Shown: positions 2,516-25,230 of the stretch, one piece after another | Layout of the letters: each line of letters begins with the position of its first letter | Numbering within the stretch: position 1 is the first letter of the stretch | From: an uncultured Bacteroidota bacterium | GTDB taxonomy: Bacteria > Bacteroidota > Bacteroidia > Bacteroidales > GWA2-32-17 | Length of the DNA: 64,000 nucleotides | Assembly (NCBI GenBank): GCA_903872185.1 | Contig: CAIQJL010000264.1 | Location: forward strand, 64,038 to 128,037 | Direction of reading: 5' to 3' | Made by a program: the position numbers and the translations under genes | Notes under the pieces: model-generated | The model's input: only the letters and a program-made list of their open reading frames with translations | Databases searched by the model: none | Told to the model about the DNA's origin: nothing

Positions 2516-2965
2516 ATGACTAATACAAAAAGCATAAAATCTACAGTTGTCCAGCTATTTACAACTTATCTTGAAAAAAAAGGTCATCGTAAAACACCTG
2601 AGCGCTATGCTATTTTAGATGAAATATATTCGCAAACTGGGCATTTTGATATAGAAACACTTTACATTTTTATGAAGAATAAAAATTATCGTGTTAGTCG
2701 TGCTACACTTTATAATACTATTGAGCTTTTATTGGACTCTAACTTAGTAATTAAACATCAATTTGGGAAAAATATAGCTCAGTTTGAAAAATCGTATGCA
2801 TGTCGCCAACACGATCATTTAATTTGCATTAAGTGTTCAAAAGTCACAGAATTCTGCGATCCTAGATTACATGAAATAATTAAATCAGTTCAACAAAACA
2901 CTGACTTTGAACCAATTTTTCATTCCCTATATATATATGGTACCTGTGGTGAGTGTAAAAAATAA
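2516..2965 (+). CDS. Fur-family metalloregulator
   Basis: 149 aa. Winged-helix N-terminus, HDH motif followed by [10 protein letters not shown], and a C-terminal CGEC pair; this is the typical Fur/Zur/PerR layout. Confidence 0.85.
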
Positions 2966-2966
2966 A

Positions 2967-4070
2967 TCAGGATATATTTTTAAAAATATCTTTTAAAACC
3001 TGTTCTTCATTTTCCCAACAAAGTTCGGCAGCAGCTTTTTTTGTATTATCTTTCCATATACCTCTAACTGGTTCATCAAAAAGCATTGATTTAATTATTT
3101 CTGCCATTTTCTTAGGATCTCTTTCTAAAGTACAAATACCAACATTATAGTTTTCAATTATTCTTTTCATTTCGGGGAAATCTGATGCTAAGACCGGTAT
3201 ACCAGCATGTATGTAATCAAATATTTTATTTGGAAGTGCATAATAATAATTTAAACCCATATTTTCTTCTAATGAAATTCCAAGATGAGCAGAAACAGTA
3301 TATTCTGTAAGTTCTTCTAAAGGTATTTTACCTGTAAAAAAGATTTGCTCACTCACATTTTCACTCATAACAAGCTCTTTTAACTGTTCTCGAATATCAC
3401 CGTCACCAATAATAACAAAATTTACATTTTCCAGATATTTTACTGCTTTAATAACAGCCTCTATTCCTCTTCCTATATTTAGTGCACCTTGATAAATAAT
3501 TATTTTTTTATCTATAGGGAACATTTTTTTATTGGTACATATTGTTTTATCATGTTTAAAAGGAACATTTCTTAAAACAGAAAATTTTATATTATATTTT
3601 TTTAAATATTCATCTGATAAAGATTGACAAACAGTATAAGCAACTTTTAATTTTGGAATAATTGTTTTTTCAATTTTAAGCCAAATATTTCTTGTAAAAT
3701 TTCTTTCTATTAGCTCAGGAACTTCTGTAAAATATTCGTGGCTATCATAAACTAAAATCTTACTTCTTATTTTTGAAGCTAGATAATTAGCTAAAAGCGT
3801 ATCAAGATCATTTGCCAAAAAGACATTTGCCTTTGAAAAAAGAAGCAGAAAAAATAATCTGAAATTATATTCTGCATAAAATAACGGGCCTTTATTAAAT
3901 AATAAGGATAGTCTCTTTATTTTATAATCTCGGGTTACAGAATAAGAATTAGAAAATTTTCTACCAACCAGCAATACTTTATATCCCATAGATTCAAGAC
4001 TAATGCATACTTTGTGTACACGATTATCTGAAACCAAATCATTAGTAACCGAAACAATAATCCTTTTCAA
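2967..4070 (-). CDS. GT-B fold glycosyltransferase (family 1/4-like)
   Basis: 367 aa. The C-terminal half carries the GT1/GT4 signature region (GRGIEAVIKAV..., FTGKIP..., EENMGLN..NKIFDYIHAGIPVLAS). Confidence 0.8.
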   Translation of the reverse strand: MKRIIVSVTNDLVSDNRVHKVCISLESMGYKVLLVGRKFSNSYSVTRDYKIKRLSLLFNKGPLFYAEYNFRLFFLLLFSKANVFLANDLDTLLANYLASKIRSKILVYDSHEYFTEVPELIERNFTRNIWLKIEKTIIPKLKVAYTVCQSLSDEYLKKYNIKFSVLRNVPFKHDKTICTNKKMFPIDKKIIIYQGALNIGRGIEAVIKAVKYLENVNFVIIGDGDIREQLKELVMSENVSEQIFFTGKIPLEELTEYTVSAHLGISLEENMGLNYYYALPNKIFDYIHAGIPVLASDFPEMKRIIENYNVGICTLERDPKKMAEIIKSMLFDEPVRGIWKDNTKKAAAELCWENEEQVLKDIFKNIS

Positions 4071-18945: not shown

Positions 18946-19265
18946 AGATTTGCACAAATTAAAACACCTAATACGATAAAATTTTGTAGCTTGTTTTATT
19001 ATATAAAATTGATTTTTAATAAATTTCAAATCAATTTACAAATTCAAAAATTAACTTTTCTTGAAAATTTAAAAAGAAATAGTCATTAGCCAATATTGCT
19101 AATAATTAATATGATTGAAAAATATTTTAACAAAAACATGTTCTTTAATATTGATAAGAATCATAATTTTGTGTGTTTTACCTAGTTAGTTATATAGTAA
19201 TTTTGTAATAGACTATTTTCAATTGTCAAACAAGCTTTTTTTAATAACTAATTATACAAAATATT

Positions 19266-19808
19266 ATGAATATTAAAGTTTTAGGAGCTGGCTGCCATAA
19301 TTGCAGAGTATTTGAAACTGCAGTTCAAGAAACATTAACAGAAATGAAAATTGATGCAAAAGTAGAAGAAGTTGATAACATTACAGAAATAATGTCATAT
19401 GGAATTCTACGCACACCAGGTTTAGTTATTGATGGAAAAGTTGTTTTAAGTGGCAAAATTCCAACTAATAAAGAAATTAAAGACATTATTAAAAATTCTA
19501 TTAAAAACGAAGAACAAAAAGTAAAGTTCACAAGTAATCAAGAACAAATTGCAAGAATTGGGCTAGCTTTTTCACACCCTGCAAGAATTTTTATTTTAGA
19601 AACTTTAAATACTATGCATACCTGCTGTACAGATTGCCATAGTATTGGAGAAACACTTATAGATCCTGATACATTAGCAGAACATTTAAAGATTTTAAAA
19701 AGTGCAGGATTAATTCAAGGAGAAATTGTACCTCCAAAAATTAATTTCTGTATTAACAGAATAAATTTAGAAATCGCTAAAATTCTAATCACAAACTTTC
19801 TAAAATAG
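19266..19808 (+). CDS. fusion protein: thioredoxin-like 'redox-active disulfide protein 2' module (CHNC) plus ArsR/SmtB-type winged HTH module (CCTDC)
   Basis: 180 aa. Residues 1-77 align with ORF 21485..21724 (MNIKVLGAGCHNC / MEIKVLGTGCANC). Residues ~88-180 align with ORF 21728..22027 (FTSNQEQIARIGLAFSHPARIFI / FTAQQEQIARIAKALGHPARVYI; AGLIQGEIVPPKINFC / AGLIQGNIEPPQIKYC). Confidence 0.75.
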   Translation: MNIKVLGAGCHNCRVFETAVQETLTEMKIDAKVEEVDNITEIMSYGILRTPGLVIDGKVVLSGKIPTNKEIKDIIKNSIKNEEQKVKFTSNQEQIARIGLAFSHPARIFILETLNTMHTCCTDCHSIGETLIDPDTLAEHLKILKSAGLIQGEIVPPKINFCINRINLEIAKILITNFLK

Positions 19809-19830
19809 ATTTAATTAATATTATAAAAGT

Positions 19831-19867
19831 AAGTCTGGTTCCATTAAATTGGGGCCAGACTTTTTTT
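19831..19867 (+). terminator. rho-independent terminator after the Trx-ArsR fusion gene
   Basis: AAGTCTGGTTCC-ATTAAATT-GGGGCCAGACTT hairpin followed by TTTTTTT, 23 nt after the stop. Confidence 0.6.
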
Positions 19868-19960
19868 ATATTAAAAATATTTCGATTAAGTATAAACTAA
19901 TTAGATAAAGTATTGTATTTTTGGTATAAATAAATCTGCACACAACAAAGATAACTCAAT

Positions 19961-20689
19961 ATGGAAAACACAATAACAAGAATTGCTATCTTAGTTGATG
20001 GTGATAACGCACAGGCAAAACTTTTAAAACCAATTTTGGAAGAAGTTTCAAAATATGGAAAAGTAACAATTCGCAGAATATATGGCGACTGGACAAAACC
20101 ACAAATGGGAAGCTGGAAAGAATCATTGAATGACTTATCATTTACTCCTATTCAGAAGTTTTCATATACAACAGGAAAAAACTCTACAGACAGTTCATTA
20201 ATTATTGACGCAATGGATATTCTTCACGACAATATTGTAGAAGGATTTTGCATAGTTTCTAGCGATAGCGATTATACTGGATTAGCAAAAAGAATAAGAG
20301 AAGAAGGTGTATTTGTTATGGGTATTGGCGAAAAGAAAACCCCAAATGCATTCGTTCAATCATGCGAAATTTTTACTTACAGCGAAAATATTGTTCCCGT
20401 TGTTACAGAAGTTATTCTTAAAAAATCCAATCATAAGAAATCACAAAAACCCCAAACTCCACAAGTTGATATTAAACTCGTAAACAAAGCTTACGATATG
20501 TCGGTAAGTGAAGGATCCGAAACTCATATTTCACAGGTTGGACTAAATATAAGAAAAATAAATCCAAGCTTTGATCCCCGTGCCTTTGGATTTAAAACCC
20601 TTACTCAACTATTCGAAAGTCTTACCGATTACGAAGTAATTAGAAACAAAGTTGGAAGCTTAAATCATCCTATGGTTAAAAGGAAATAA
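19961..20689 (+). CDS. NYN (LabA/DUF88-like) domain protein with C-terminal OST-HTH/LOTUS-like domain
   Basis: 242 aa. IAILVDGDNAQ...IRRIYGDW...NSTDSSLIIDAMDIL...FCIVSSDSDYTGLAKRIRE is the NYN/PIN-like nuclease pattern. The C-terminal ~70 aa (ISQVGLNIRKINPSFDPRAFGFKTLTQLFES) look like OST-HTH. Confidence 0.75.
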   Translation: MENTITRIAILVDGDNAQAKLLKPILEEVSKYGKVTIRRIYGDWTKPQMGSWKESLNDLSFTPIQKFSYTTGKNSTDSSLIIDAMDILHDNIVEGFCIVSSDSDYTGLAKRIREEGVFVMGIGEKKTPNAFVQSCEIFTYSENIVPVVTEVILKKSNHKKSQKPQTPQVDIKLVNKAYDMSVSEGSETHISQVGLNIRKINPSFDPRAFGFKTLTQLFESLTDYEVIRNKVGSLNHPMVKRK

Positions 20690-20694
20690 ATTAT

Positions 20695-21372
20695 TTATTT
20701 CCAGTATTCATAATCCATATACTTTGCTGTAGCATCAGCAGCTTCTTTTCCAAAATATTTTGAAACAACAAACAGCGAACCGTCTATACCTGCCGAAACA
20801 CCTGCAGTAGTAACCACTTTTCCATTATCTGTATAACGAACACCTTTCATAACATTTGCAGTTGGAACCATTTTCTTTAAATTTTCTAATGCTCCATGCC
20901 ACGTTGTTACATTAAGGCTATCTAGTAATCCTGCATCAGCTAAAATAAACGCACCTGTACATACCGACATTAAGGTTTTTGATTCATTAGCAGTATTTAT
21001 TAACCAACTTTTAAATTCAGGTTGGTCTTTTAACAATCCTAAATCGCCACCAGGAACAATAAAAATATCTGGTTTAGGGCAACTATTAATATTGTAATCT
21101 GGAATTATTTTTAATCCACTGTGTGCTTTTATTTCTTCTTTTGCTGAAACGGTATATACATTAAATAAATGCTTACCATCTTTTGAATATGAATCATAAA
21201 ATACCTCTAATGGTCCAGTAAAATCTAATACATATACATCATTATAAACAAGAATAGCGACATTTAGAGTTTGCTGCTTTTCATCTTTAGCTTGTGCAAT
21301 ACTAAAGAATGGAATAATTAAGCATAAACTTAAAAACATCAATATTTGTTTTCCATCTTTTATAATTTTCAT
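20695..21372 (-). CDS. DJ-1/PfpI-family protein with N-terminal signal peptide
   Basis: 225 aa. Signal peptide (FFSIAQA), class-I glutamine-amidotransferase-like fold and nucleophile elbow MSVCTGAFILA. Confidence 0.85.
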   Translation of the reverse strand: MKIIKDGKQILMFLSLCLIIPFFSIAQAKDEKQQTLNVAILVYNDVYVLDFTGPLEVFYDSYSKDGKHLFNVYTVSAKEEIKAHSGLKIIPDYNINSCPKPDIFIVPGGDLGLLKDQPEFKSWLINTANESKTLMSVCTGAFILADAGLLDSLNVTTWHGALENLKKMVPTANVMKGVRYTDNGKVVTTAGVSAGIDGSLFVVSKYFGKEAADATAKYMDYEYWK

Positions 21373-21441
21373 GATTAAACTTTTGTAATAAATATTTGAT
21401 TAAAATTAATTTCAAAAATAAATAAAATCTTTTTGGAAATC

Positions 21442-21461
21442 ATTTCGTATATTTGCGAAAT
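21442..21461. promoter_or_regulatory. candidate ArsR-type operator: ATTTCG-N8-CGAAAT inverted repeat whose spacer TATATTTG matches the Bacteroidota -7 promoter element TAnnTTTG
   Basis: Read directly: cATTTCGtatatttgCGAAATat, 24 nt upstream of ATG 21485. It lies in the divergent region shared with the DJ-1 gene. Confidence 0.4.
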
Positions 21462-21484
21462 ATAAAAATGCAAAATTATCCATT

Positions 21485-21724
21485 ATGGAAATAAAAGTTT
21501 TAGGCACAGGTTGTGCAAATTGCAAAACCCTAGAAAAAGCTGTTAATACAGTATTAACAGAAATGAATTTAAATGCAACAGTAGTTAAGGAAGAAGACAT
21601 TCAGAAAATAATGTCATACGGAATAATGAAAACTCCAGGCTTAGTTATTGACGAAAAAGTTGTACTTAGTGGACGAGTACCAAATTCAAAAGAATTAAAA
21701 GAAATTATAGAGAAAAGTATTTGA
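21485..21724 (+). CDS. small thioredoxin-fold protein (redox-active disulfide protein 2 / Thioredoxin_3 type), CANC active site
   Basis: 79 aa. MEIKVLGTGCANCKTLEKAV...KTPGLVIDEKVV is typical of the family. Confidence 0.85.
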   Translation: MEIKVLGTGCANCKTLEKAVNTVLTEMNLNATVVKEEDIQKIMSYGIMKTPGLVIDEKVVLSGRVPNSKELKEIIEKSI

Positions 21725-21727
21725 TTA

Positions 21728-22027
21728 ATGACAACGAAACCAAAATTTACTGCACAACAAGAGCAAATAGCTCGTATTGCAAAAGCATTAGGACACCCGG
21801 CAAGAGTTTATATTATGGAAAAGCTTATTGGTTTAAATTCATGCTGCACAAGCGGCGAAATGATTGGCGATATTCCTATTGCACGGTCAACTCTTTCACA
21901 ACATTTAAAAGAGTTAAAATACGCAGGATTAATACAAGGAAATATAGAACCACCTCAGATTAAATACTGTGTAAATAAAGCTAATTGGGAAATTGCCAAA
22001 ATTCTATTAAAGAATTTTATGAAATAA
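21728..22027 (+). CDS. ArsR/SmtB-family metalloregulatory transcription factor
   Basis: 99 aa. LGHPARVYIMEKL (alpha1-2), a CC pair at the alpha3 position (NSCCTSGEMIG), HTH STLSQHLKELKYAGLI. Confidence 0.88.
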   Translation: MTTKPKFTAQQEQIARIAKALGHPARVYIMEKLIGLNSCCTSGEMIGDIPIARSTLSQHLKELKYAGLIQGNIEPPQIKYCVNKANWEIAKILLKNFMK

Positions 22028-22043
22028 TTTAATTATTTAGATG

Positions 22044-22063
22044 TTTCGTTATTATGCGAAATA
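22044..22063. promoter_or_regulatory. second copy of the candidate operator (GTTTCG-N8-CGAAAT)
   Basis: gatGTTTCGttattatgCGAAATaa, 26 nt upstream of ATG 22089. Same half-sites and same 8-nt spacer as at 21442. Confidence 0.4.
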
Positions 22064-22088: not shown

Positions 22089-22640
22089 ATGAAAATCATT
22101 AAAAAAATAAAATTTACTACCTTAGTAATAATTGTTTCCATTTGTATTACTTCTTGCAATTCTACCCCTAACAGTTTAGAAAGCAATTTACAATCTGATT
22201 CGATACCATCAATAATAGATACTTTAACAGCACCTATATCAATTACAGACAATACAAATATAGAAAACACAGAAAATACAACAGCATCAATAAAAAAAGA
22301 GGAAATACCTAAAATCCTTATTTATAACTTTCATGTAACAAATCGCTGTGCTTCTTGTATTGCAATAGAAAACGCAACAAAAAAAACACTCGACACTTAC
22401 TTTAAATCAGAACTTGATAAAGGAATAATAAAGTTCTCGATTTTATCAGTTGATGATGATGCTAATGCTAAAATTGCTGAAAAGTATCAGGCTTTTGGAT
22501 CAGCATTATTTGTAACAAGAGTTTTTAAAGGCAAAGAAACTACCTCTGATTTCACAGGCGATGGCTTTAAATATGCAAAAAATAAAGAAGAAAAGTTTAT
22601 AGAAATACTAAAAAATCAAATTACAGAATATTTAAAATAA
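22089..22640 (+). CDS. exported lipoprotein with thioredoxin-like RCxxC domain (resembles proteins I recall being labelled ArsF-family in Bacteroidota)
   Basis: 183 aa. Lipobox ITSC, a low-complexity linker, then ILIYNFHVTNRCASCIAIE...EKYQAFGSALF. Confidence 0.6.
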   Translation: MKIIKKIKFTTLVIIVSICITSCNSTPNSLESNLQSDSIPSIIDTLTAPISITDNTNIENTENTTASIKKEEIPKILIYNFHVTNRCASCIAIENATKKTLDTYFKSELDKGIIKFSILSVDDDANAKIAEKYQAFGSALFVTRVFKGKETTSDFTGDGFKYAKNKEEKFIEILKNQITEYLK

Positions 22641-22646
22641 CATATT

Positions 22647-23060
22647 ATGAAAAAAATATTATTCATATTGTTTTTAGCATTAACAAATTGTACATTATTT
22701 GCACAAACTCAAAATCTAAATAAGAAAACAAAACTATTAGTCTATTATTTTCACATTACCGATAGATGCAATACATGTAGAAGCATTGAAGCGGTTACGA
22801 CTAAAGTATTGAATGAAAATTACAAAAACGAACTTGATAGCGAAATAATAGTTTTTAAAACTTTCAATGTTGAATACCCAGAAAATAAATATATCTGTGA
22901 AAAATATCAGGCATATGGTGCCACATTAGCTCTTACTAAAATAGAATTTGGTGCAGAAGTAAAAATTGATGATTTAACCAATTTCGCTTTTTCAAAAATT
23001 CACACAGAAGAAATATTTACAAAAGGATTGATGGATAAAATAAATGAGTATTTAAAATAA
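22647..23060 (+). CDS. exported RCxxC thioredoxin-like protein, tandem paralog of 22089..22640
   Basis: 137 aa. Signal peptide, then LLVYYFHITDRCNTCRSIE...EKYQAYGATLAL, collinear with the upstream gene. Confidence 0.6.
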   Translation: MKKILFILFLALTNCTLFAQTQNLNKKTKLLVYYFHITDRCNTCRSIEAVTTKVLNENYKNELDSEIIVFKTFNVEYPENKYICEKYQAYGATLALTKIEFGAEVKIDDLTNFAFSKIHTEEIFTKGLMDKINEYLK

Positions 23061-23066
23061 CTCCTT

Positions 23067-23765
23067 ATGGAATTCATACAAAATCTAATTGACAATACTA
23101 ATATTCCTATTCTATCTGCTTTCCTTCTGGGAATTATGACTGCCATTAGTCCTTGTCCACTTGCAACTAACATTACTGCAATTGGTTTTATAAGCAAAGA
23201 CATTGAAAACAAAAAAAGAATTTTCTTTAATGGAATATGGTACACTTTAGGAAGGGCTTTTAGTTACACCACTATAGGTATAATTCTATATTTTGGGGCA
23301 AGTACTTTTAAGGTTGCAAAATTATTTCAATCAAACGGAGAAAAATTTTTAGGTCCATTACTTATAATTGTTGGAATACTAATGTTTGATTTTATTAAAA
23401 TTAAATTTCCAGGTTTTAGCAAACTTTCAGAGAAAATTGAAAACAAAAATAAAAATAACTGGTGGTCTGCCTTTCTGTTAGGTGTTGTTTTTGCTTTAGC
23501 TTTTTGTCCATATAGTGGGGTTTTATATTTTGGAATGTTAATTCCAATGACTGTTTCAAGTGTATCTGGATTATATTTGCCATTTGTTTTTGCATTAGCA
23601 ACAGGTTTGCCTGTAATAATAGTCGCTTATCTTTTAGCTTTTAGCATTTCAAGCATTGGTGGGTTTTACAGTAAGGTTAAAATTTTCGAAAAATGGTTCC
23701 GAAGAATAGTAGCTATAGCTTTTATTATAGTAGGGTTATATTACACTTACATTTTCTTTTTTTAA
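23067..23765 (+). CDS. CcdA/DsbD-type (DsbD_2) transmembrane thiol-disulfide electron carrier-like protein
   Basis: 232 aa, about six TM segments. The two hallmark membrane-embedded Cys-Pro motifs are present: AISPCPLATN (TM1) and ALAFCPYSG (TM4). Confidence 0.78.
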   Translation: MEFIQNLIDNTNIPILSAFLLGIMTAISPCPLATNITAIGFISKDIENKKRIFFNGIWYTLGRAFSYTTIGIILYFGASTFKVAKLFQSNGEKFLGPLLIIVGILMFDFIKIKFPGFSKLSEKIENKNKNNWWSAFLLGVVFALAFCPYSGVLYFGMLIPMTVSSVSGLYLPFVFALATGLPVIIVAYLLAFSISSIGGFYSKVKIFEKWFRRIVAIAFIIVGLYYTYIFFF

Positions 23766-23774
23766 ATTTAAAAA

Positions 23775-24809
23775 ATGAAAAACAGCTTTGTTCAAAGCGT
23801 AAAAGGTAAAATTATTTTACCCTTGTTATTATTACCTATTTGGTTTATAATTTACCATTTTTTACAACCATTTACAGAATGGTTTGTGTTCTCTGCATTG
23901 GGTATGGTTAAAGGCGAACATCTTGCAGAAAGTATCTGGTTTTTCATTTTTGAATTTCCAAAAGTATTGTTATTACTAACATTGATCATTTTCTTAGTAG
24001 GAATTATAAGAACTTTCTTCACTCCCGAACGCACTCGTAAAGCTCTTGAAGGCAAAAAAACTTTTACTGGCAATATTTTAGCTTCATTACTGGGTATTGT
24101 TACACCATTTTGCTCCTGTTCTGCAATTCCTCTATTTCTTGGCTTTGTTGAAACCGGTGTTCCATTAGGAGTAACATTTTCATTCCTTATTGCTGCCCCA
24201 ATGATTAATGAAGTTGCAGTTGTGCTTTTATATGGCATGTTTGGATGGAAAGTTGCATTAATTTATATTTCTACAGGTTTGTTTATAGCAATTTTTGCAG
24301 GCTGGGTAATAGGTAAACTTAAACTCGAAAAATGGATAGAACCCTGGGTCTTTGAAACAAAAATAGGACAAAATACCCTTGACGAGAAACTAATATTCAG
24401 TGATAGAATTAAATTTGGATACGATGCGATAAAAGAAATTGTTGGAAAAGTCTGGATATATGTTGCTATAGGAATTGCAGTAGGTGCAGGTGCGCATGGA
24501 TATGTGCCAGCCGAATTCATGGCTTCATTAATGGGAAAAGACATTTGGTACGCAGTTCCACTTTCTGTTTTGATTGGAATACCATTATATTCTAATGCTG
24601 CTGGTATAATTCCAATCGTTTCTGTACTTATCGAAAAAGGAGCTTCACTTGGAACTTCACTTGCATTTATGATGTCGGTTATTGCTTTATCATTGCCAGA
24701 AATGATTATCCTTAGAAAAGTACTAAAGCTTCCATTAATTTTTACTTTCATTGGTGTAGTTGGAGTTGGTATAATAATAGTTGGCTATTTGTTTAATTTT
24801 ATTTTTTAA
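23775..24809 (+). CDS. COG0701/UPF0718 (ArsP_1, DUF318) permease
   Basis: 344 aa polytopic protein with the family motif TPFCSCSAIPLF. Confidence 0.8.
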   Translation: MKNSFVQSVKGKIILPLLLLPIWFIIYHFLQPFTEWFVFSALGMVKGEHLAESIWFFIFEFPKVLLLLTLIIFLVGIIRTFFTPERTRKALEGKKTFTGNILASLLGIVTPFCSCSAIPLFLGFVETGVPLGVTFSFLIAAPMINEVAVVLLYGMFGWKVALIYISTGLFIAIFAGWVIGKLKLEKWIEPWVFETKIGQNTLDEKLIFSDRIKFGYDAIKEIVGKVWIYVAIGIAVGAGAHGYVPAEFMASLMGKDIWYAVPLSVLIGIPLYSNAAGIIPIVSVLIEKGASLGTSLAFMMSVIALSLPEMIILRKVLKLPLIFTFIGVVGVGIIIVGYLFNFIF

Positions 24810-24819
24810 ATAAATATTT

Positions 24820-25230
24820 ATGTTTAAAAACAAGGGATTTAAAATCGGTAACATTTTACATTTAACTCCAAAAGAAGCATATGAGCTTTGTAACCAGGAA
24901 TCAATTCTTGTTGATGTACGTGAAGATTTTATGGTTGGATGTAAAATTTTCGATGTAAAACAAACACTCTATTGTCCTGCAAGTAAAATTGAAGAATTAT
25001 ACAATAATTTACCAATAGAATCCTCTCTCGTTATTGCAGATGCAACTGGAATACATAGCAAAGAAGTAATTAATTTTCTGACCCAAAAAGGCTTTACAAA
25101 TATTGCAAATCTTGCAGGTGGCTTAGTTGAATGGGAACGCGACAACTTACCACTTCAAATTGACATCACCGAAATGCTAACAGGTTCTTGCATGTGTCAG
25201 TTAAAACAAAGGCACAAGAAAACAAATTAA
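24820..25230 (+). CDS. single-domain rhodanese-like protein, non-canonical active-site loop (Asp instead of Cys), C-terminal CMC tail
   Basis: 136 aa. ILVDVRE...LVIADATGIHSKEVINFLTQKGFTNIANLAGGLVEW aligns with the GlpE-type loop CYHGNSS, placing D where the catalytic C sits. The tail is TGSCMCQLKQRHKK. Confidence 0.78.
   Translation: MFKNKGFKIGNILHLTPKEAYELCNQESILVDVREDFMVGCKIFDVKQTLYCPASKIEELYNNLPIESSLVIADATGIHSKEVINFLTQKGFTNIANLAGGLVEWERDNLPLQIDITEMLTGSCMCQLKQRHKKTN

Follow-up and report, generated by a model that had tools for sequence, protein, structure and literature searches.

Two copies of the same pair of protein modules lie close together in the genome of an uncultured Bacteroidota bacterium (GTDB lineage Bacteroidales; GWA2-32-17): in one, a small thioredoxin-like gene of the arsE type and an ArsR-type regulator gene are separated by an in-frame TGA stop and one further codon; in the other, located upstream, the two modules form a single open reading frame (ORF). 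Both lie in a 64,000-nucleotide (nt) stretch of contig CAIQJL010000264.1 (assembly GCA_903872185.1, positions 64,038 to 128,037), here called the window. The locus raises the question of whether the stop is read through, whether the fused or the split form came first, and whether the thioredoxin acts on the regulator. A sequence-only reading had offered readthrough and a change between the fused and split forms as alternatives, and had taken either as Rosetta-stone evidence for a direct action of the thioredoxin on, or with, the regulator. The explanation that we consider likely has three parts: an ordinary operon junction, a paralogue that arose by stop loss, and a thiol switch in the free regulator that ArsE would reset. 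The features concerned are as follows.

21485..21724, + strand: arsE-like gene encoding a 79-amino-acid (aa) thioredoxin-like protein of the MTH895/ArsE family, with a CANC motif (C10/C13) and a TGA stop
21722..21727, + strand: junction, consisting of the TGA stop (21722-21724) and a 3-nt spacer, TTA (21725-21727), in frame with arsR
21728..22027, + strand: arsR-like gene encoding a stand-alone 99-aa ArsR/SmtB regulator with an ATG start, C39-C40 on alpha3 and C81 in the wing
19266..19808, + strand: fused Trx_3-ArsR gene, a single ORF of 180 aa
19266-19502, + strand: thioredoxin (Trx) module of the fused gene, codons 1-79, with CHNC at C10/C13
19503-19529, + strand: linker of the fused gene, codons 80-88
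19530-19805, + strand: ArsR module of the fused gene, codons 89-180, with C120, C121, C124 and C162

The arrangement that had been read from the letters was confirmed to the base. The ORFs at 21485..21724 and 21728..22027 both start at positions equal to 2 modulo 3 and so share a frame, and their junction runs ...AGT ATT TGA TTA ATG ACA..., or S-I-stop-L-M-T. Residue counts agree with the cysteine sites proposed for the fusion (CCTDC; C120/C121/C124) and the split copy (CC; C39/C40). The suggested nucleotide alignment of the two loci bears out the claimed single collinear 180-aa paralogue at 19266..19808: the 540 coding nt align gap-free (79+1+1+99 = 180 codons), the split TGA stands opposite a fused AAA (K80), the split ATG opposite a fused GAA (E82), and the products share 56% amino-acid identity (tblastn). 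That two neighbouring genes share a frame is expected by chance in 1 in 3 cases; that the pair aligns with the fused copy without gaps we take to reflect common ancestry.

Both Trx modules clear the cut-offs of Pfam Thioredoxin_3 (PF13192; 24.8 bits) and TIGR00412 (62 bits), with 99.5 and 110.2 bits for the split ArsE and 90.5 and 95.3 bits for the fused module. The split ArsR matches Pfam HTH_5 (30 bits, cut-off 22) and reaches 43.2 bits against NF033788 (cut-off 55), and its family profile matches YgaV, CmtR and BigR; the fused ArsR module gave no HTH_5 match at E <= 0.01 and 25.5 bits against NF033788. The AlphaFold2 model of the fusion (predicted local distance difference test, pLDDT, 84; predicted template-modelling score, pTM, 0.52) has a thioredoxin fold at residues 1-80 (beta-alpha-beta-alpha-beta-beta-alpha), a low-confidence 9-residue linker and a winged helix-turn-helix at 90-179 (helices 90-102, 105-117, 134-146 and 165-179; strands 150-155 and 158-163). 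Foldseek matched the Trx half to 1ILO (template-modelling score, TM, 0.80 normalised to target; root-mean-square deviation 2.0) and the ArsR half to SrnR, CzrA, SmtB, BigR and RexT (probability 1.00, TM 0.55-0.69); none of the solved chains that it matched spans both domains. The 1ILO protein, MTH895, is also the closest solved structure to both Trx modules by phmmer (E = 2.7e-13) and carries the same CxNC motif; unlike the fusion, it is a free archaeal protein, known as 'small redox-active disulfide protein 2'.

The fused gene is conserved in its own right. Its orthologues in contigs L083, L084 and L086 are all intact at 180 aa and keep CHNC, CCTxC and Cys162. Ratios of nonsynonymous to synonymous divergence (dN/dS) among them are about 0.06-0.08 for the fused gene; by module they range over 0.05-0.12 (Trx) and 0.03-0.06 (ArsR), with dS near 1. 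Both modules are under strong purifying selection. In L083 (GCA_016218155.1, JACREQ010000011.1) a 102-aa product is annotated at 3149-3457; a re-split fusion was considered there and ruled out, since translation gives the full, intact 180-aa ORF at 2915-3457, pointing to a gene-calling artefact. Trx-ArsR fusions may therefore be under-counted in censuses based on gene calls. Two non-coding features flank the fused gene in the window.

19102..19205, + strand: conserved non-coding block, about 100 nt long, preceding the fused gene
19831..19872, + strand: intrinsic-terminator-like hairpin (13 pairs and a T-run) just after the fused gene

The upstream block is nearly invariant in four orthologous loci whose coding dS is about 1, whereas the sequence nearer the ATG has diverged. 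It holds an imperfect palindrome, GTTCTT-N10-AAGAAT, at 19140-19161 (one copy in the window, statistically unremarkable) and a -7-like element, TAATTTTG, near 19199-19206; Rfam returned no match for the block, which may be an operator, a leader or a small RNA. Because the terminator-like hairpin follows directly, the fused gene is presumably monocistronic, and with its own conserved upstream block and predicted terminator it appears to be a separate unit.

Related loci were gathered by scanning one genome per species (80 loci) and by collecting contigs that encode the closest ArsR homologues. arsE lies immediately adjacent to arsR in about 59 of the 80 species loci, in most species just downstream of arsR (about 52 junctions); the order of the window, with arsE upstream, is found in a minority of loci that includes all closest relatives. 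The stand-alone ArsR itself drew 2875 matches, of which the best 120 are 99 aa long with few exceptions. Across 81 distinct stand-alone sequences Cys40 is present in 81/81, Cys81 is invariant and Cys39 occurs in 63/81; the fusion keeps both cysteines of the CC pair.

A precedent for such a pair of genes is RexT of Nostoc sp. PCC 7120 (PDB 7TXM), an ArsR-SmtB repressor of the adjacent thioredoxin gene trxA2, in which H2O2 produces a vicinal Cys40-Cys41 disulfide, DNA is released and TrxA2 reduces the disulfide back (PMC8960804). Every RexT homologue has Cys41 but not every one has Cys40; the dual-cysteine switch was described as unique to Nostocales cyanobacteria, with an adjoining thioredoxin gene as the mark of 'true' homologues (PMC8960804). 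Our stand-alone ArsR profile aligns with a RexT homologue at an hhalign probability of 94% (E = 1.6e-7), and Cys39-Cys40 falls exactly on Cys40-Cys41. The two systems have in common the ArsR/SmtB fold, an adjoining thioredoxin-type gene and vicinal cysteines at the start of alpha3, the second universal and the first mostly present in both families; the DNA-contact residues Arg26 and Lys50 of RexT correspond to R26 and K/R53 of the Bacteroidota ArsR. They differ in phylum and in the partner, which here is a 79-aa MTH895/ArsE-type Trx_3 protein and not TrxA. The Bacteroidota ArsR also has the extra invariant Cys81, and its operon continues into ArsF, ArsG, ArsP_1 and rhodanese genes; RexT has no described fusion, and the analogy is drawn from sequence. 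The region of Asn77, a peroxide-activating residue of RexT along with Arg61 and Thr68, lies outside the alignment, and an ungapped extension places Asn77 at Y80/C81. Set against the classical As(III)-responsive ArsR of the R773 type (alpha3 Cys32-Cys34-Cys37), only C40 of the split regulator aligns, with the As(III) ligand Cys32, with Ser and Glu at positions 34 and 37 (hhalign 41%), and the CCTxC of the fused paralogue (C120, C121, C124) differs in spacing from the R773 CxCxxC.

We propose that the stand-alone ArsR would be a thiol-switch repressor: an oxidant or a thiol-reactive (organo)arsenical would modify its invariant Cys40, along with Cys39 and Cys81; the signal could be an oxidant, a persulfide or a trivalent (organo)arsenical. 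By analogy with the resetting of RexT by TrxA2, the co-expressed ArsE would use its CxxC to reduce the ArsR cysteines back. In the fusion this exchange would be intramolecular, the CxxC module being held on a 9-residue linker beside a cysteine-enriched sensor site (CCTxC and C162). The tentative part of the proposal is that the CxxC exchanges directly with the sensor cysteines, by thiol-disulfide (or thiol-metalloid) chemistry and within one chain in the fusion; we put its chances somewhat below even. The Rosetta-stone claim thus stands in part: recurrent fusions in both orders (described below), the frequent adjacency of arsE and arsR, purifying selection and the position of CC on the RexT disulfide favour a functional link, and direct action is a plausible form of it.

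The regulator half of the fusion probably no longer reads the same DNA. At ArsR positions 53, 54, 57, 58 and 59, the 81 distinct stand-alone proteins have K/R, S/A, S, Q and H almost without exception, whereas the fusion has P/H, D, A/H, E and H; the net charge of the fused ArsR module is -1 (isoelectric point, pI, 6.4) against +7 (pI 9.55) for the free protein. The segments best conserved between the paralogues are the presumed dimerisation helices (QEQIARI; EIAKIL..NF.K), and alpha1 and alpha5 of the fusion are 62-67% identical to the free ArsR by hand count. With its changed recognition helix the fused protein would bind a different operator or possibly none. The fusion thus lacks four near-invariant residues for DNA contact. 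A bolder, joint version, which we think unlikely as a whole, is that the Bacteroidota pairs of 99-aa CC-ArsR and Trx_3 form a second independent RexT-like lineage in which the fused paralogue, not itself a repressor, serves as a Trx-tethered heterodimer partner that modulates or reduces the free ArsR.

The genes that follow the split pair also bear on what ArsE does. Together with arsE and arsR they appear to form a conserved Bacteroidota operon, arsE-arsR-arsF-arsF-arsG-ArsP_1 permease-rhodanese, whose gene order is repeated in the related contigs L081, L085, L090, L092 and L094.

22089..22640 and 22647..23060, + strand: two tandem ArsF-family genes (NF040494, 99.6 and 92.1 bits, cut-off 60)
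23067..23765, + strand: ArsG-family/DsbD_2 membrane protein (NF040495, 318 bits, cut-off 200)
23775..24809, + strand: ArsP_1-family permease, a distal gene of the co-directional cluster
24820..25230, + strand: rhodanese-domain protein, a distal gene of the co-directional cluster

The two ArsF paralogues each have a hydrophobic N-terminus and a CxxC (CASC and CNTC), and the number of copies in relatives ranges from one to three. No classical arsC, arsB/acr3 or arsM was found in this part of the window. In two relatives (L088 1-3457 and L090 7177-8300) the arsE-arsR operon adjoins a second, 111-112-aa ArsR, an LMWPc-type arsenate reductase and an S-adenosylmethionine (SAM) methyltransferase, and in L088 also a DsbD-CdhD-like-ferredoxin cluster; the window has neither these classical genes nor the cluster nearby. 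The family names recall the ArsEFG organoarsenical system, which Chen, Zhang and Rosen are said to have described in 2019 (Environ Sci Technol 53:6182, as cited in PMC10190100). The split ArsE, both ArsF proteins and ArsG pass the NCBIfam cut-offs for these families; unlike in that system, as far as a comparison by family names alone goes, arsE here is tightly paired with arsR and in one copy fused to it. As gene context for a possible joint action of ArsE and ArsF in reducing nitro-aromatic arsenicals, two arsF genes and one arsG follow the split pair, and none is near the fused copy. A paper of 2010 pointed out redox-active disulfide protein 2 and CcdA in ars operons (PMC2963123), and a Trx_3 protein was called ArsE in a third ars operon of P. 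mercurii (bioRxiv 10.1101/2022.10.17.512643).

How often the two modules have fused was asked of protein collections. A word-indexed search with the fusion gave 10 matches, with the fusion in three clusters that are 83-91% identical. When 1.84 billion representatives were searched exhaustively with HMMER, the window-type fusion came back as a single 50%-identity cluster, along with lineages that surfaced only there: P0181 and P0131 in the same order (Trx_3-ArsR), and P0004, P0172 and P0194 in the reverse order (ArsR then Trx_3). Fusion has therefore recurred, in at least six lineages and both gene orders. The halves of P0131 are slightly closer to the split proteins than to the window fusion, which suggests an independent fusion event.

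These results have to be weighed against the rival that survives best, namely that the fusion is a functionally indifferent accident of adjacency: the Trx module would serve the ArsF/ArsG pathway or general redox needs, with no direct Trx-ArsR interaction implied. Mechanistically, stop loss is an easy step where neighbouring genes share a frame, ArsE, ArsF and ArsG appear in NCBIfam as a single organoarsenical system, and for redox-active disulfide protein 2 and CcdA it was earlier proposed that they feed arsenate reduction (PMC2963123). The P0131 gene (L096 2559-3113; contigs L096-L098), an orphan between pcrB-like and glycosyltransferase genes, has lost both CxxC and CC and yet persists in 15 contigs. 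On the other side, fusions recur across those lineages in both orders, the window-type fusion keeps both modules with all sensor and CxxC cysteines, and RexT/TrxA2 offers a precedent with cysteines at aligned positions. The fused gene also has a promoter region and terminator of its own, at a distance from arsF and arsG, so its Trx module is not simply co-expressed with ArsF. On balance we regard an indifferent accident as rather unlikely.

Several observations nonetheless weigh against the combined explanation that we favour, and above all against its thiol switch. The peroxide-activating Arg61 and Thr68 of RexT correspond to invariant Lys64 and Gly71 in the Bacteroidota family. The other operon genes carry arsenical-resistance family names, and ArsE may serve ArsF and not ArsR. 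The three reverse-order fusions carry classical CxC arsenite-type sites, and in view of these and of the family names an arsenical, in place of an oxidant, could be the signal. P0131 (184 aa, 35% identity to the fusion) persists without CxxC and CC, so not every fusion depends on thiol chemistry, and this protein may now do something unrelated to it; adjacent genes can also fuse merely through adjacency. The structural model of the fusion gives no reliable inter-domain orientation (pTM 0.52). As to origin, in a tree built from the ArsR modules by neighbour joining, the fusion has a long branch that attaches next to the arsE-upstream clade and not clearly inside it.

Which form came first can nevertheless be argued from other evidence. 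In the tree midpoint rooting is misleading, and we argue the direction from distribution, start codon and pairwise similarity. All contigs that carry the fusion also carry the split pair, about 2-6 kb downstream, and the fused gene keeps a conserved synteny between NUDIX and NYN/OST-HTH genes. Since the fusion is confined to close relatives of the window and always accompanied by an intact split pair, it is best read as a duplicate that lost its stop. Both of its halves are most similar to the clade with arsE upstream (for the ArsR half, 54-61% identity against <=50% for other loci). Between the paralogues dN/dS is 0.29, compared with 0.04-0.08 among orthologues of either copy. The course of events would have been duplication of an in-frame arsE-arsR pair, loss of the stop in the duplicate (TAA to AAA is a single base change), and then the gain of an upstream region and terminator of its own, fast divergence and finally strong purifying selection. 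Our data support the view that the fusion is a rare, conserved duplicate, confined to the close relatives of the window and made by stop loss. Between the same pairs of genomes (the window compared with L083, L084 and L086), dS of the fused gene (0.9-1.4) is roughly double that of the split pair (0.5-0.6); recombination, different codon constraints or different histories may underlie this.

The opposite direction, gene fission, would make the fused form the ancestor and derive the split pair from it by a nonsense mutation; it would fit the exact collinearity of the two loci without an indel and a tree in which the fusion is not nested within the arsE-upstream clade. It accords poorly with the start of the regulator: the 81 distinct stand-alone sequences, from many families, share an N-terminal Met-x-x-Lys-Pro-Lys-Phe-Thr in both gene orders, so fission would need to have re-created an ancestral start codon exactly. 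About 52 loci have the order arsR-arsE, from which no fusion of the window order could form. The fusion is limited to one narrow group whose genomes keep the split pair, and its lack of recognition-helix residues that are invariant elsewhere marks it as derived. We consider fission very unlikely; of the two histories that the sequence-only reading had left open, stop loss is favoured by the widespread stand-alone 99-aa form and by the split pair kept in every fusion host, and the nonsense split is not.

There remains the stop codon itself. Two independent lake-water metagenome studies supply contigs from three sequencing runs, all identical to the window at 21722-21730, and this agreement shows the TGA to be real; the assembly error in stop or frame that had been raised as a possible objection does not apply. 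The window is 30.7% G+C, and stops in 48 genes are TAA in 37, TAG in 7 and TGA in 4; as TGA also ends three other well-formed genes, it is here a rare but ordinary stop. The survey of junctions that had been suggested, covering stop identity and context, gave 15 distinct junctions with arsE upstream, whose spacers vary as follows.

-8 nt: 4/15 distinct junctions
-1 nt: 2/15 distinct junctions
2 nt: 2/15 distinct junctions
3 nt: 5/15 distinct junctions
4 nt: 2/15 distinct junctions

The two genes are in frame in 5/15 of these junctions, exactly the chance expectation. Stops are TAA in 12, TGA in 2 and TAG in 1; four of the five in-frame junctions use TAA, and only the window combines a shared frame with TGA. 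The spacer codon is equally variable (TTA, GTA, ATA, ATT, AAT). Strains whose ArsR is 97-98% identical read ATT TAA GTA ATG or ATT TAA ATA ATG, and strains at 96% identity have a 1-nt deletion that puts the pair out of frame (ATT AAA TAATG); in all, at 96-98% ArsR identity, TAA stands in five loci and an out-of-frame TAATG in two. RNA downstream of the TGA folds no better than shuffled sequence (z = -0.36), and Rfam gave no family match at the junction, selenocysteine insertion sequence (SECIS) elements included. With spacers, stops and frames so varied and no RNA structure, the arsE-arsR junction reads as an ordinary tight operon junction, probably translationally coupled, in which the shared frame is incidental; the TGA of the window is a recent, strain-specific change from TAA.

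This leaves little room for programmed or selected low-level readthrough at 21722-21724, by which a fused Trx-ArsR would be made beside both free proteins, with the separate fused gene as a hard-wired version. Only TGA TTA separates the two same-frame ORFs, TGA is the rarest stop of the window (4/48), UGA is generally the leakiest bacterial stop codon, and a fused architecture is evidently viable. However, strains with 96-98% identical ArsR already differ in both the stop codon and the frame, a shared frame is no more frequent than expected by chance and mostly comes with TAA, the spacer codon varies freely, and no structure or Rfam match lies 3' of the stop. The base after the window stop is T, and Poole et al. 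are said to have found in 1995 that UGAU is the best-terminating UGA context in E. coli. The junction survey rules out conserved readthrough, and the suggestion that low-level readthrough is meaningful found no support in it; we hold selected readthrough to be extremely improbable, and low-level UGA readthrough in this one strain would be at most an unselected by-product. There is a negligible chance that the locus instead encodes one protein, its TGA being a mistake of sequencing or assembly or a codon recoded to selenocysteine or another amino acid: selenoprotein variants do occur among the NCBIfam families that the Trx module weakly matches, but independent assemblies from two studies agree, orthologous codons are TAA, neither a hairpin after the TGA nor a SECIS match in Rfam was found, TGA serves as an ordinary stop elsewhere in the window, and selenocysteine in this thioredoxin-like family would replace a CxxC cysteine and not a linker residue.

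Two candidate ArsR operators accompany the split operon.

21443..21460, + strand: candidate operator 1, (A)TTTCG-TATATTTG-CGAAA(T), ending 24 nt upstream of the arsE ATG
22044..22061, + strand: candidate operator 2, TTTCG-TTATTATG-CGAAA, in the arsR-arsF intergenic region

These are the only two copies of the exact TTTCG-N8-CGAAA palindrome in 64 kb. Operator 1, ATTTCGTAnnTTTGCGAAAT, is an invariant island in 11 related loci whose intergenic DNA has otherwise diverged. Its centre, TAnnTTTG, we take to be the Bacteroidota -7 promoter element. In 95 fetched loci (L001-L095) 49 palindrome sites cluster at three fixed distances from arsR, among them 10 sites of the operator-2 type at +300..+350 from the arsR start. 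The palindrome, ATTTCG-TAnnTTTG-CGAAAT, is invariant upstream of the leading gene, be it arsE or arsR, and recurs directly behind arsR. Lying over the promoter, it is a good candidate for the operator of the stand-alone ArsR and of its whole family. No copy was found upstream of the fused gene, and so no operator that it would share with arsE.

Between the fused gene and the split operon, all relatives examined share a gene (19961-20689 in the window) for an NYN and OST-HTH/LOTUS protein, presumably an RNase with an RNA-binding domain. The interval shows one local gene replacement in a synteny that is conserved elsewhere: in L081 (1871-5139), tatC, tatA and two Por_Secre_tail genes take the place of the single DJ-1/PfpI gene found at 20695-21372 of the window and in other relatives.

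The kinds of arrangement seen here are known. ArsRM is an ArsR fused to a methyltransferase, from Brevundimonas sp. M20 (PMC10190100), and ArsRC is an ArsR fused to an arsenate reductase, for example in Paracoccus sp. (PMC11672702). Like the window fusion, these are natural single chains of ArsR and a pathway enzyme; the ArsRC partner is a thiol-based redox enzyme, and such fusions can be bifunctional. They differ from it in that ArsRM has a large methyltransferase as partner, where a minimal CxxC thioredoxin fold here stands N-terminal to the regulator, and in that the regulator module of the window fusion has an altered recognition helix. Since ArsRC and ArsRM have been studied, it is too broad to say, as had been remarked, that an ArsR fused to a redox module has yet to be characterised; for the particular combination the statement holds: the literature that we searched, with incomplete coverage, yielded no description of a Trx_3-ArsR fusion, nor of the Bacteroidota CC-ArsR family as a redox switch. 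ArsR fusions and ArsR-thioredoxin regulatory pairs are both established kinds, and the window fusion is a variant of these.

At this locus, then, an in-frame TGA between linked genes is an ordinary operon junction. The point deserves note, since readthrough is readily supposed at junctions of this kind. Modest but real results are left: a natural fusion, rare and conserved, in which a minimal CxxC thioredoxin is joined to ArsR and whose type has recurred independently in both orders, together with a widespread Bacteroidota regulator family that has cysteines at the RexT switch position and a clearly defined candidate operator. These data offer a testable model in which the small 'ArsE' thioredoxins, so far named by their association with ars operons, would work on the neighbouring regulator, and they suggest that vicinal-cysteine switches in ArsR proteins may extend beyond cyanobacteria.

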